Shown: piece after piece, positions 58,981 to 64,000 of the stretch
Layout: each line of letters opens with the position of its first letter
Position numbering within the stretch: the first letter of the stretch is position 1
Origin: Escherichia coli 042
GTDB taxonomy: Bacteria > Pseudomonadota > Gammaproteobacteria > Enterobacterales > Enterobacteriaceae
Strand: one strand, 5' to 3'
NCBI RefSeq assembly: GCF_000027125.1
Contig: NC_017626.1
Length of the DNA stretch: 64,000 nt
The notes under the pieces: model-generated
Databases searched by the model: none
What the model was told of the DNA's origin: nothing
The model's input: the letters and a program-made list of their open reading frames with translations, nothing else
Translations under genes and position numbers: made by a program

Positions 58981-59706
58981 TCACAGAATTAACAGGTCCT
59001 CATCAGGATCAAGCGTGGACAGAAAGTCATTCACGCCCCCGCCATTTACCAGAAAGCGGCTCATGGCTGTAAAAAGCGCAACAGGGCCGTCGATTTTGGC
59101 TTCCGGCGTGGATTTATTCGGGAAGATGTTGTCGTTTTTGTCCGGTTTTACAGTAACGTTAGACATCATCCAGTTCATGACCGGATGATTGCTGTGATGG
59201 AAACGCCCGGCATAAACCAGTGATTCCGTTTCCTTCATGGCCTCTGACAGATTGCGGACCGTCTGCGGAACCTCCACCAGCGGTATCCCTTCTTCAGCCA
59301 GTGCCAGACTGAACTGCATTGCGCTCCACGGGTCAAATCCCAGTTCCCTGAGGTTTTCACCGCCAATCCATTCCAGTAAGTCACTTTTTATCTGAGCATG
59401 ATCGATAACATCACCATCCGTCAGGATGAGCTTATCCATCTCCGCCCACTTCCGGTAAAGTTCTGCCTGCTGCCGCGAGCATCGTTCCAGCCGTCCTTCC
59501 GGAAGCCAGAATTTAAAATCAGCATGAACATGTCCGTTATCGGTTCGCCAGAGTTTTGCCGCCGCACAGATATCAATCTTATGAGCAAGGTCGACGCCGA
59601 CCCACATGGGATATGTTTTCAGCTCATGTTGTGGAGCAATGTATTCGCACTTCTCCCACTTAATCATATCCATCCAGGCAGATTCGGCAGTGACCCACAC
59701 ATTCAT
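58981..59706 (-). pseudogene. 5'-truncated terminase large subunit (C-terminal nuclease domain only)
   Basis: 241-aa ORF aligns to residues about 315-553 of the intact TerL at 60233..61894 (for example NVTVKPDKNDNIFPNKSTPEAKIDGPVALF versus NVVMQSDANANIKPNKKKSSNKIDPSVAAL) and lacks the ATPase domain. Confidence 0.65.
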
Positions 59707-59998
59707 GTGTTTGGTAAGAATATTTCAAGTTTTTTAAAATTGACTGTATATCAATCGTTTAACATGAAAAAACAGTCTTTATAAATCATCGAGCAATACA
59801 CAGCGCAATACACGTATCTGTATTGTTTTAATGCTGATACACACCGTTTTTTGATACAGTGATTCGACCTACCATCGCGAAGCATTTTTTATTTCTTGTG
59901 TGTAACAATCTGACGAGGTGAGCACTCAAAGAGATAAGAGGCAGTAGAAATTTCGATCCCCCCTGAATGCAATTTTTCGTATATATATACAAAACAGT

Positions 59999-60151
59999 GC
60001 GGGTTATGCGGGTTAGCGGGTTATCTTCGCGTGCTAATTATCTTTTACTCTTTAATATCAATATGTTAAAAAACAACGCATTTAAATATCAGCCAGAATG
60101 TAACCCGCAAGACATTCAAAATAACCCGCAAACACCCCTCAAATAACCCGC
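59999..60151. repeat. iteron-like repeat cluster around an AT-rich core
   Basis: Three tandem GCGGGTTA(T) units at about 59999-60024 and three inverted copies (A)TAACCCGC at about 60101, 60121 and 60143, spaced about 21 bp, flanking an AT-rich centre. Confidence 0.7.
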
Positions 60152-60232
60152 AAAAACATCCCTGAAAGTAGGTGCCGGTAATACTGAAAATTTATTCCAT
60201 TAAATGAGCATTGTCCTCTCTCATCCATTCCG

Positions 60233-62234: not shown

Positions 62235-62522
62235 GTTCTTTTTTCGCCCAATTATTTTCAAAAAAATTCCCGTGCACAAAAATTTGAGGAGGCGGTCGGT
62301 GTCCGGCAGGGACGGTTTCGTCCTGAAAACCTCCCCCACCCCCTCTGACAGCCTCACCAGCGATTGCGAAAACATTCCATGACCTCGCGGTCACGGTCGG
62401 TTAATCGCTTCGGTGTGGTGCGTTCTGTGCGCCCTGTCCTGTTGACTTTGTGCCCTGTCTCCTGTGTCTTCCATAAGTCACGCTGCCTTATCAGTCCACG
62501 TATCAGCCTGTTTTGCTCCTGT

Positions 62523-62963
62523 TCAGTCATCATCGCCATACATCCAGTCGTTACGATGTGCCGCCCGTTCTTCCTGCTCGCGATACATGCCCGCCTTACG
62601 GTTCGCTTTCGTGGCTGGATCTTCCCGTGTCGTCTTACGGTTGTGGCACGTCTGGCACAATGCCTGGTGGTTCCACTCAGGCCAGAAGAGAACATCACCG
62701 CCGCCATTGATGGGAATGATGTGATCCACCACAAGAGCTGGCGTATAAATCCCCTTAGCCAGACAACGCACGCATAACGGGTTTTTGCTCAGGTACAGGG
62801 CGCGGTATTTGTCCCACTGCCGGGAATACCCACGCGCGCGGCGGTGCCCCCGTCTGGCATCCTCTGCACGCCATGCAGCCCGCCTGTGCTCTTCACACTT
62901 GCCGGACTTCACGCGCTTATTACAGCCCGGCTCAGTGCATCGCCTTAATGGTTGCCACGGCAT
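62523..62963 (-). CDS. HNH endonuclease (terminase-associated)
   Basis: 146-aa ORF with Cys-rich HNH motif (DHIIP...NHQALCQTCHNRKT) adjacent to the terminase genes. Confidence 0.85.
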   Translation of the reverse strand: MPWQPLRRCTEPGCNKRVKSGKCEEHRRAAWRAEDARRGHRRARGYSRQWDKYRALYLSKNPLCVRCLAKGIYTPALVVDHIIPINGGGDVLFWPEWNHQALCQTCHNRKTTREDPATKANRKAGMYREQEERAAHRNDWMYGDDD

Positions 62964-63262
62964 CAGTACACCCCCACATCACGATAAACCGACCAGAGCG
63001 CAGAAATAGCCATAGGCAGTTCAGACTGTTCCACAGGTGAAACCGCTTCCCTGTTCTCGTACAGGAAAGCGATGTACATCAGGCAACCAACACGTATTGC
63101 CGGGGTAAATTCCAGCCCGTCTTCAAAACGTTTCCCGATATGCTTCTGGCAGGCTTCCAGCGCCGCATCGGTATACATTTTCAGAAGTTCGCCTTCTCCG
63201 GAAAAGTCATCAAGGCGAAGATGTGCCCTGACTTCATCAGGTGTAATTTTGTCTTCACTCAT
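62963..63262 (-). CDS. second gp6-like head-tail connector protein
   Basis: Start at the internal ATG (MSEDKITPDEVRAHL...); shares the YENRE-type pattern with the connector at 55389..55739 but is clearly diverged. Confidence 0.5.
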   Translation of the reverse strand: MSEDKITPDEVRAHLRLDDFSGEGELLKMYTDAALEACQKHIGKRFEDGLEFTPAIRVGCLMYIAFLYENREAVSPVEQSELPMAISALWSVYRDVGVY

Positions 63263-64000
63263 CTTTTTCACCTTTAATTTCCACAGTCTGCTTCCATGCC
63301 TGGCTGAACTCGTCGCCACCTTCACGCGGCGGCATTCCCTCACGCTCACGGGCTTCGTTCGGATTCATGATCCCGTTCTTAATCCCTTTCTCATACGTGG
63401 CGTAACGTTCGGTAGGGGTGGCGCGCAGTAAATCGGCTGAATCAAACTCAACCAGATAACGGGTACCAGGTACGGGAGAAGCCACCAGCAAAGCGGCCTT
63501 GATTTGCTGTTCGAAGTTCGCCAGCCACGGACGCATTGTCATAGTCAGAAACGCGCGGCTTGCCTCACTGAAATTGCTGTAGGTGCTGTTGCTGTATTCC
63601 TGAAGAAAAATCGGCGACACGTTGAACATACGGGCAATGTCTTCAATGGAGAAGCGACGGGAGGCCAGCCATTCAGCATCCTGGTTACTCATTCCCAGTT
63701 GCTTGTAATCCATGCCCCCTTCAAGGATTGGCGTTTTTCCGGCATTTTTCGCCCCCTTGTAGCGTTCCAGTGCGTCTAATGCCTGTTTACCTTTCACGCC
63801 GTCCAGCCATTCGCCTGACGTGATAATCCCTGCCGCCATCATGCCATCTTTCATAATGCTGGCTCCGTGGCGCTGTTGAGCAAGGCCAAGCCCCAGCGCC
63901 TCACGGCAAATCGTGACAGGGGAGCGCCCCAGAAAGCCATCATCCGAGGCATAGCGGAGATGCAGAACTTCTTCCTGTAAATACGTGCGCACCGTTCCTG
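63255..64000 (-). CDS. second portal protein, C-terminal part only (5' end beyond the window)
   Basis: The 245 aa visible align with the C-terminal half of the portal at 57607..58833 (MRPWLANFEQ versus MMPWVANWEQ; NEAREREGMPP versus NEARAFEDMNP). Confidence 0.6.
   Translation of the reverse strand, partial: GTVRTYLQEEVLHLRYASDDGFLGRSPVTICREALGLGLAQQRHGASIMKDGMMAAGIITSGEWLDGVKGKQALDALERYKGAKNAGKTPILEGGMDYKQLGMSNQDAEWLASRRFSIEDIARMFNVSPIFLQEYSNSTYSNFSEASRAFLTMTMRPWLANFEQQIKAALLVASPVPGTRYLVEFDSADLLRATPTERYATYEKGIKNGIMNPNEAREREGMPPREGGDEFSQAWKQTVEIKGEKDE

Follow-up and report, generated by a model that had tools for sequence, protein, structure and literature searches.

The last 4.3 kb (positions 59718–64000) of the window, a stretch of 64,000 nucleotides of Escherichia coli 042 (contig NC_017626.1), make up the right end of a roughly 15.3-kb satellite. 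This satellite is very probably a capsid-forming PICI (cf-PICI) by gene content and a helper-embedded PICI (HE-PICI) by location, residing inside the large terminase gene (terL) of its helper prophage. The locus has the anatomy of such an insertion: it has a short att core, excision in silico restores the helper open reading frame, the insertion recurs in different prophages, and its site is the same as a published one. In strain 042 the window stops before the satellite does; for the integrase, attL and the 5' part of the helper terL, the evidence comes from related genomes.

Helper and satellite genes in the window

The series of minus-strand genes listed in the original prediction is present, each gene at its predicted position. 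Helper late genes and satellite genes are co-oriented, all being on the minus strand:

57607..58833, minus strand: helper portal, 408 aa (portal_HK97, TIGR01537, E=1e-96; annotated as portal in the related E. coli locus L001 and in phage PhiR49_2)
58981..59717, minus strand: 3' part of the helper terL, beginning near codon 341 of 585 and keeping its stop (phrog_2699/phrog_9, terminase large subunit)
60233..61894, minus strand: satellite terL, complete, 553 aa (Pfam TerL_ATPase, 71–242, and TerL_nuclease, 253–530; phrog_9, E=4.5e-181)
61878..62234, minus strand: satellite terS, P27 family, 118 aa (TIGR01558, E=1.9e-17; phrog_83, E=3e-38; PGAP length 357 nt)
62354..62539, minus strand: small conserved ORF between hnh and terS, 61 aa (phrog_3173, E=2e-28)
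62523..62963, minus strand: satellite HNH endonuclease, 146 aa (phrog_144 HNH endonuclease, E=3.6e-45; PGAP annotation)
62963..63262, minus strand: satellite head-tail adaptor/connector, gp6-like, 99 aa (TIGR01560, E=2.4e-19; phrog_40 head-tail adaptor Ad1, E=1e-27)
63255..64000, minus strand: satellite portal, 3' two-thirds (portal_HK97 positions 124–343 of 343)

From its portal, the helper late operon runs leftward via protease, capsid, connectors and lambda-like tail genes to about 39.3 kb. On the other side of the portal lies the helper terL fragment, which holds most of the nuclease domain. The prediction that this is a 5'-truncated TerL stood as regards the nuclease part, ORF 58981..59706 being the C-terminal part of a terminase large subunit (PHROG, E=8e-86), but not as regards its boundary: the homology extends beyond the ATG at 59706 to the att core at 59717. 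The fragment is 99% identical to the 3' part of the intact terL of phages PhiR49_2, Evi and others, and the match stops at the core. PGAP labels it "terminase TerL endonuclease subunit, missing N-terminus", a name that suggests a working, stand-alone endonuclease subunit; this was rejected because PGAP itself flags the ORF as incomplete and because the stub corresponds exactly to the 3' portion of terL genes that are otherwise intact.

About 490 bp of repeat-rich, non-coding DNA separate the terL fragment from the complete satellite terL, the length of which equals that of the annotated gene in L001; the repeat-rich block noted earlier is thus real. All satellite genes within the window are intact. 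Profile searches support the earlier identification of a complete TerL, a TerS, an HNH protein and a gp6-like connector; the TerL has both the ATPase and the nuclease domain (Pfam), and the TerS is of the P27 type. NCBIfam gave no match for either TerL and none for the HNH protein, and the TerL and HNH assignments rest on PHROGs and Pfam. The HNH endonuclease is a packaging cofactor of HNH-dependent cos terminases. For terS, a longer ORF of 165 aa starts from 62375, but this is probably not the true start; the TIGR01558 match covers residues 53–151 of the long ORF. The small ORF is annotated as hypothetical in L001 and in a further related locus, L003, and an equivalent small ORF follows hnh in the cf-PICI record vB_KppS-Ant. 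An Rfam scan of 58500–64000 (E<=1) returned nothing, so that the part of the element inside the window contains no known RNA family such as C4/isrK. Likewise, a promoter and terminator scan of 59600–60300 gave nothing above the expectation from shuffled sequence.

At the right edge of the window, ORF 63255..63992 is a portal homologue (portal_HK97), as had been proposed. It is not, however, a C-terminal fragment, as was thought, but a gene that the end of the window interrupts: no stop occurs in its frame up to the final complete codon, and it is collinear with the full-length L001 portal of 404 aa. The overlap of 8 nt between the portal stop (63255) and the adaptor start (63262) is confirmed. 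The apparent direct fusion of portal to gp6, with protease and capsid missing, dissolves in L001, where both lie upstream of the portal; in L001 and L003 they are found just beyond the position of the window edge, with one connector gene annotated. The gene order, which the original prediction did not recognise from HK97-like phages, is standard in proteobacterial cf-PICIs, and its strangeness reflected the window edge and unfamiliarity with these elements.

The two packaging sets are homologous and well diverged, as the original prediction had it. The helper ORF 58981–59706 matches residues 312–528 of the 553-aa satellite TerL with 30% identity (E=4e-29), while the satellite and helper portals, both matching portal_HK97, share 29% identity (E=3e-31).

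The attachment core and the complete element in related genomes

In the E. coli locus L001, which is 98.5% identical, the missing 5' half of the helper TerL is found 15,280 bp further on. There, the helper genes HNH-TerS-TerL (N fragment) are followed by an insert with the order int-AlpA-HTH-BroN-Icd-DUF4222-DUF927-SSB-PerC-capsid-protease-portal-connector-HNH-TerS-TerL, after which the helper resumes with TerL (C fragment)-portal-protease-capsid-tail. In the part of the element that corresponds to sequence beyond the window, L001 encodes a tyrosine integrase and AlpA (Pfam PF05930, E=2e-9), DUF927 is confirmed by Pfam, and the gene list of the satellite contains no tail and no lysis genes. 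Two features at the right end of the element mark the junction:

59711..59717, no strand assigned: attR crossover core TTGGTAA (ttaccaa on the coding strand), from a three-way alignment of intact terL, attL and attR
59792..59814, minus strand: doubled arm-type motif gTGTATTGCgctgTGTATTGCt, with exact copies of TGTATTGC at 59793–59800 and 59805–59812

The core was defined by aligning the intact terL of phage PhiR49_2 with attL and attR. It falls at codons 341–343 of 585 in the helper terL and, in the related genomes, flanks the satellite on both sides. Together with 60 nt on the satellite side, it matches published attR entries of the site A:Terminase_1:246 (PMC10111431). The arm motif gTGTATTGCgctgTGTATTGCt, located 79–98 bp from the core centre, is presumed to be a binding site for the integrase arm domain or for AlpA in attP and attR. 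Doubled TGTATTGC has been described as unique to HE-PICIs, where it flanks the attP centre at distances of about 81 bp on the upstream side and 132 bp on the downstream side (PMC10111431); in the attP reconstructed from L001, the pairs are at -102/-90 and +132/+144.

When the 15,280 bp are removed in silico from the related locus, an intact TerL of 585 amino acids results; it contains both the ATPase and the nuclease domain, and its frame is free of internal stops. In the occupied state, the terL reading frame enters non-TerL sequence past attL, and the int start codon follows 5 nt after the point where this truncated frame stops. A T7-run variant has int fused in frame with the truncated helper terL.

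Within the window alone, a 5'-truncated TerL beside a complete, diverged TerL could equally be read as module replacement, in which a foreign HNH-TerS-TerL cassette displaced the original genes by illegitimate recombination and left a dead TerL stub. The related genomes refute this reading for themselves and make it extremely improbable here: the helper HNH, TerS and TerL 5' half persist 15.3 kb upstream, the break is at a 7-bp repeated core, the inserted DNA contains an integrase and a replication module, and the supposed stub belongs to a cleanly split gene, giving back the intact 585-aa ORF when joined to its other half.

The same satellite occupies the same terL site in UMNF18, in a prophage with a contractile tail, so that one 15-kb unit is found at one terL codon in unrelated prophages, with lambda-like and with contractile tails. 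The occupied junction is present in 33 of 5,426 complete E. coli genomes; most of the roughly 896 other matching genomes cover the terL side only, up to the core, representing the unoccupied target. Two HK97-type head and packaging sets in series might also suggest tandem prophages, or what is left of another HK97-like prophage next to the first, the remnant having been offered as one option. This is very unlikely given that the insert of 15.28 kb lacks tail and lysis genes, has a PICI-type int-AlpA-Bro-primase organisation in a unidirectional layout, recurs as an identical unit at the same codon of unrelated prophages and has att sites that agree with those of a published satellite. As to a chimeric assembly or collapsed repeat joining different phage regions, nothing beyond the unusual look of the junction speaks for it, and its probability is negligible: the junction recurs at 95–99% identity in 33–35 independent complete genomes from different hosts and countries and is also among the 68 published attR sequences (PMC10111431). 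The original prediction had already argued against a simple assembly collapse. Among its explanations, an embedded satellite with its own HNH-TerS-TerL is the one borne out, by the integrase, AlpA, primase/helicase, head and packaging genes and the 7-bp att core.

Candidate cos region and ori-like iterons

Two non-coding features of the satellite can be assigned a putative role:

62235..62353, no strand assigned: candidate satellite cos region, an intergenic gap separating the small ORF from terS (proposed on the model of HNH-dependent cos phages)
59995..60155, minus strand: ori-like iteron module, with three copies of TTGCGGGTTA, an AT-rich spacer and three inverted copies

In HNH-dependent cos phages, cos is located between hnh and terS, and by this analogy we infer that the gap at 62235..62353 is a candidate cos. 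The virion-derived cf-PICI record vB_KppS-Ant begins 22 bp before terS and finishes just after the small ORF; the text of the cf-PICI paper does not give a cos location.

The iteron module forms the repeat-rich core of the non-coding block next to attR. The three copies of TTGCGGGTTA are spaced at 21–22 bp, the AT-rich spacer measures about 75 bp and the three inverted copies follow at 8–9 bp; five copies are exact, against 0.45 expected per 64 kb. In L001 and L003, the same 9-mer clusters a second time, directly behind the gene for the DUF927 primase. In its architecture, the module agrees with published PICI origins, which have an AT-rich region between two iteron sets (PMC6092414). A classical PICI adjoining clpS in strain P393-F10 encodes a DUF927 protein of 84% identity, and its right end bears an iteron block that is nearly the same. 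In one cf-PICI that encodes a different primase, the iterons differ as well.

The block was also considered as a cos or TerS-binding site of the satellite. This was judged less likely because the same iterons occupy the canonical ori position after the primase gene, because the P393-F10 element, with its closely similar DUF927 protein, shares the block despite a different terS, and because the cf-PICI with the different primase has different iterons.

Relation to known satellites and proposed mechanism

HE-PICIs at the site A:Terminase_1:246, such as Eco1645.15.A_Terminase_1_246, have been catalogued as 15-kb E. coli elements with the att identity ttaccaa and 68 published attR sequences (Tommasini, Mageeney & Williams 2023, NAR Genom Bioinform, PMC10111431). 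Our element has the same target gene, codon and 7-bp att identity, an attR that is near-identical base for base and the doubled TGTATTGC arm motif; the size class, species, co-orientation with the late operon and int-AlpA-Bro-primase-Late zone layout are also alike. There is no substantive difference, and the window element is a further copy of this group, in an arrangement known since 2023. That publication does not call the terL-site elements capsid-forming, nor does it discuss the presence of a complete terL in a satellite that targets terL (PMC10111431).

The likeness to the cf-PICI prototype EcCIEDL933 (Alqurainy et al., bioRxiv 10.1101/2022.09.08.507074; de Sousa et al. 2023, PMC10085698) is one of gene content, order and size. 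Proteobacterial cf-PICIs have the conserved order capsid-protease-portal-connectors-hnh-terS-terL (bioRxiv 10.1101/2022.09.08.507074; PMC10085698). Like our satellite, they have genes for capsid, protease, portal, connector, HNH, TerS and TerL and none for tails or lysis, place the morphogenesis genes before hnh-terS-terL, measure about 15 kb and have a PICI-type left half with integrase, regulator and primase. The 15,280 bp between cores, the DUF927 gene and the iterons after the primase gene fit the cf-PICI size range of about 10–15 kb and its features. In one respect the satellite departs from the published definition, by which cf-PICIs use chromosomal attB sites never occupied by prophages, six of them in E. 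coli (bioRxiv 10.1101/2022.09.08.507074; PMC10085698): its site is inside a prophage gene. The chromosomal-attB rule is a criterion of the original survey rather than a mechanistic feature, and would have missed a cf-PICI-like satellite of this kind.

Classical E. coli PICIs of the EcCICFT073 type (Fillol-Salom et al. 2018, PMC6092414) have the same unidirectional int-alpA-pri/rep-ori organisation but differ from our satellite in having neither terL nor portal, in usually being without a full capsid set, and in relying on the helper terminase and cos. The arrangement also resembles regulated gene integrity, or active lysogeny, a concept discussed for HE-PICIs (PMC10111431), in which an element interrupts a gene without replacing it and function returns after precise excision. 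Unlike in active lysogeny elements, the interrupted gene here belongs to another mobile element, the helper phage, and it is presumably the satellite, not the cell, that gains from the regulated interruption of terL.

In the mechanism we propose, the tyrosine integrase would have placed the satellite into the TTACCAA core of the terL of a lambdoid prophage with an HK97-type head. Insertion, co-oriented with the late operon, would have divided the gene so that the 5' part, with the ATPase, lies beyond the window and the 3' part, with the nuclease, remains at 58981–59717. Because the satellite brings no replacement for the interrupted gene, the helper would be without a functional large terminase until the satellite excises, an event that would restore the terL ORF precisely. 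Capsid, protease, portal, adaptor, HNH, TerS and TerL are all encoded by the satellite itself, in versions that share about 30% identity with those of the helper, and from this gene content it is predicted that it can build and fill its own small heads, needing only tails and lysis from a helper. Upon induction, the composite would excise and replicate, late read-through into int would follow, the satellite would then excise and the two genomes would be packaged separately; this order, and the delay to helper packaging it would entail, are inferred from the literature on related elements. Published induction experiments on HE-PICIs used a different host and an element sited in a capsid gene. 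Degraded helpers are common among HE-PICIs, and the L001 prophage contains several IS elements; the composite of strain 042 may therefore be inactive.

It is possible, although we regard it as rather doubtful, that the cis linkage between this terL-embedded cf-PICI and its helper is closer than published accounts describe, through the combination of four features. First, by knocking out the helper large terminase and keeping its own, non-interchangeable one, the satellite would impose a packaging lock-out; if so, it gets first use of the lytic cycle. Second, with the int start codon so close to the truncated terL frame, synthesis of the integrase could be coupled, both translationally and transcriptionally, to helper late expression. 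Third, a second, inverted copy of the replication-origin iterons adjoins attR. Fourth, one satellite is carried by siphovirus- and myovirus-tailed prophages alike. None of the four is discussed for the terL-site group in the HE-PICI, cf-PICI and PICI papers cited here.

Both the site and its element family had been catalogued before, so this analysis serves to confirm and annotate rather than to discover. The nested satellite explains a gene order that resembles a puzzling duplication or an assembly error, and such nested mobile elements can mislead automated prophage and satellite callers as well as human readers. The case also joins two parallel literatures that rarely cite each other, on cf-PICIs, with their own capsids and terminase, and on HE-PICIs, which reside in helper late genes. 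The element would be a parasite of a parasite, which has a motor and head of its own and leaves the packaging motor of its helper disabled until it departs.

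Gene order at the split terL

The core chromosome of E. coli fills the window from position 1 to about 38,240 (the fli operons, rcsA and dcm, on to zinT), and tRNA genes are absent from the whole 64 kb. It is followed at about 39.3–59.7 kb (39326–59717) by the late region of a lambdoid helper prophage with a lambda-like, non-contractile tail, on the minus strand throughout, in the order tail fibre, Lom, J, tape measure, tail tube, connectors, capsid, protease and portal. The zinT gene (37592–38242) abuts the tail-fibre end of this prophage (38243–39325). Gene families at 58981–64000 were called with NCBIfam, PHROGs and Pfam.

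Features at the right-hand end of the window
58981–59706, minus strand, C-terminal part of TerL (241-aa ORF)
59707–60232, non-coding DNA
60233–61894, minus strand, complete TerL (553 aa)
61878–62234, minus strand, P27-family TerS
62354–62539, minus strand, 61-aa ORF
62523–62963, minus strand, HNH endonuclease
62963–63262, minus strand, gp6-like head-tail adaptor
63255–64000, minus strand, second (satellite) portal

The family matches bear out the gene series of the original prediction, including the terminase and portal homology of ORFs 58981–59706 and 63255–64000, as well as the divergence of the paired copies: the partial and complete TerL share 30% identity (E=4e-29), and the helper portal and second portal 29% (E=3e-31). 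The second portal had been taken for a fragment; its frame stays open up to the final codon of the window and encodes a complete 404-aa protein in NZ_OZ501612.1 (L001), the closest complete genome, with 98.5% identity over 100% of window 58500–64000. All satellite head and packaging genes inside the window are intact.

In L001, in the direction of transcription, the helper genes run from lysis genes through HNH and TerS to a TerL fragment that the annotation marks as C-terminally incomplete. The insert then begins with a tyrosine integrase, AlpA (Pfam PF05930), a second HTH protein, Bro-N, Icd-like and DUF4222 proteins and a DUF927 primase/helicase, and continues with SSB, PerC, major capsid, prohead protease, portal, connector, HNH, a small ORF, TerS and TerL. 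After about 500 bp of non-coding DNA the helper resumes with a TerL fragment marked as N-terminally incomplete, followed by portal, protease, capsid and tail genes. What looked like a separate second packaging module forms the right-hand part of an inserted 15.3-kb element, and the presence of integrase, AlpA, primase and its own head and packaging genes between the two terL halves identifies it as a satellite embedded in a prophage, one of three explanations proposed. The L001 helper contains several pseudogenes as well as insertions of IS3-family, IS2 and IS421 elements (L001 1–579, 38944–40172 and 44545–45502) and may be defective; this fits the truncated look noted for many HE-PICI (helper-embedded PICI) helpers (PMC10111431).

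Attachment site and independent occurrences

Both junctions were aligned to the uninterrupted terL of phage PhiR49_2, which is 99% identical to window 58500–59724. The flanks switch at a common core, TTGGTAA (59711–59717), after which attB and attL read AAAAATT and attR reads GAATATT. The cores are 15,280 bp apart in L001, and removing this stretch in silico yields a TerL of 585 amino acids with zero internal stops, containing TerL_ATPase (112–268) and TerL_nuclease (283–563) domains and the crossover site at codons 341–343 (…NFFTKHMNVW…). Because excision between the cores rejoins the gene, the supposed dead terminase stub is the 3' half of a terL split by site-specific insertion; excision would, as shown in silico, restore it exactly. 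This also refutes replacement of the packaging module with a stub left behind. The insertion disrupts the helper terL, and the satellite supplies no replacement sequence. At the homologous position, the satellite's own terL (window about 60965–60973, minus strand) reads CTCACCAAG, in which the counterpart of the core is TCACCAA, one mismatch from TTACCAA, with 29 of 60 flanking bases identical; given this mismatch and the divergent flanks, it is probably not a target of the satellite's integrase, and self-targeting is probably avoided.

A satellite of about 98% identity is located at the same terL codon in E. coli UMNF18 (L003), in a prophage (L003 1–16686, compared with window 39326–59717) that combines HK97-type head genes with the sheath, tube and baseplate of a contractile tail. 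This occurrence refutes a second-prophage remnant, and, since the same satellite is found in lambda-like-tailed and contractile-tailed prophages, one satellite lineage rides in helpers of different tail types. Among 5,426 complete E. coli genomes surveyed with a 401-bp probe centred on the window attR, 33 cover the probe in full and so have the occupied junction, while about 890 other genomes match on the terL side only, ending a few bases past the core (all partial matches among those listed), and represent the unoccupied target. Together, the two classes exclude the chimeric assembly that had been considered and establish true site specificity.

Relation to published PICIs

HE-PICIs use 14 sites, served by a single integrase clade; one of these, A:Terminase_1:246, is tabulated with 15-kb E. 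coli elements and the att identity "ttaccaa" (Tommasini et al., PMC10111431). The published attR and attL alignments for this site match the window and L001 nearly base for base. A doubled motif unique to HE-PICIs, tgTGTATTGCantgTGTATTGCa, flanks the attP centre at distances of about 81 bp on the upstream side and 132 bp on the downstream side (PMC10111431); the window has it at 59792–59814, 79–98 bp from the core centre, and reconstruction of attP from L001 places the second copy at +132/+144, matching the published layout.

Capsid-forming PICIs (cf-PICIs) encode capsid, protease, portal, connectors, HNH, TerS and TerL and no tails, and proteobacterial members conserve the order of morphogenesis genes followed by hnh-terS-terL (Alqurainy et al., 10.1101/2022.09.08.507074). 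By gene content, our element is a cf-PICI. The portal-gp6 order, correctly described but noted as unfamiliar from HK97-like phages, is exactly the portal-adaptor-HNH order of the proteobacterial cf-PICIs. The sole cf-PICI survey criterion from which the element departs is that attachment sites are never occupied by prophages, as it sits inside one. De Sousa et al. (PMC10085698) regard satellites within prophages as a problem for detection and mention them only once, in a passing citation. The element is a member of the already published, and hence known, HE-PICI group at A:Terminase_1:246, with standard cf-PICI content.

Another record with the gene content of a cf-PICI is 'Escherichia phage vB_KppS-Ant' (LR881103.1, 16,548 bp), deposited as a 'phage' from an induced lysate. 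It contains terS, terL, int, primase, capsid, protease, portal, connectors and HNH, and no tail genes except for a 'tail length tape measure protein' annotated directly after terL. The ends of the record, 22 bp ahead of terS and just past the small ORF that follows hnh, are compatible with a cos site in the hnh-terS gap.

Iterons, int coupling and proposed mode of action

The non-coding block 59718–60232 is part of the satellite and holds the arm motif. Within it, at 59995–60155, three TTGCGGGTTA repeats spaced by 21–22 bp are followed by an AT-rich spacer some 75 bp long and three inverted TTGCGGGTTA copies spaced by 8–9 bp. Six copies of the same 9-mer form a second cluster in L001 and UMNF18, directly behind the DUF927 gene, which is the canonical place for a PICI origin (clusters at L001 21500–21654 and 29668–29792; L003 16960–17114 and 25074–25197). 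The two clusters of the iteron TGCGGGTTA, after DUF927 and after terL by attR, are mutually inverted and flank a module of about 8 kb from SSB to terL. Published PICI origins have an AT-rich region between two iteron sets (PMC6092414), an architecture shared by the window block. A classical PICI next to clpS in E. coli P393-F10 (L006), without terL or portal, has a nearly identical iteron/AT-rich block (9134–9286) at the right-hand end, encodes a DUF927 protein 84% identical to that of the satellite, and lacks iterons in its post-primase gap. In vB_KppS-Ant, with a different primase, there is a single cluster of different iterons (GTGTTCACC). In these two comparisons the iteron sequence tracks the initiator. 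Together with the origin architecture, this leads us to read the block as a putative second initiator-binding, origin-like module rather than as cos; a second origin or a regulatory site are candidate functions. Just beyond the iterons on the attR side, a G-run (59958–59963) differs in length, G6 in the window against G7 in L001, in an otherwise highly conserved 60-bp stretch (CACTGTTTTGTATATATATACGAAAAATTGCATTCAGGGGGGATCG) common to the P393-F10 PICI.

At the other end of the satellite, the truncated helper terL frame of UMNF18 (L003 31485–31660) runs 57 codons into the element and terminates with TAA 5 nt before the int ATG. In L001 (36290–36559), where the run is T7 instead of T6, terL(N) and int share one reading frame and form a fusion ORF of 808 codons; one "terminase/int fusion" is flagged in the published HE-PICI table (PMC10111431). 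With the adjoining stop and start, or the in-frame fusion, translation of int could be coupled to late expression of the helper, which is speculation.

Following the HE-PICI and cf-PICI literature, induction would lead to excision and replication of the helper-satellite composite, and helper late transcription would read into the co-oriented satellite. Integrase and AlpA would then excise the satellite, restoring terL; the satellite would replicate from its own DUF927/iteron origin, and its HNH-TerS-TerL would package it into small capsids of its own, which would then acquire helper tails. Before the satellite excises, the helper has no large terminase, so its packaging should be delayed or reduced. 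The interest that is left in this known element lies in the explicit overlap between cf-PICIs and HE-PICIs, the duplicated origin-like block and the possible coupling of int.
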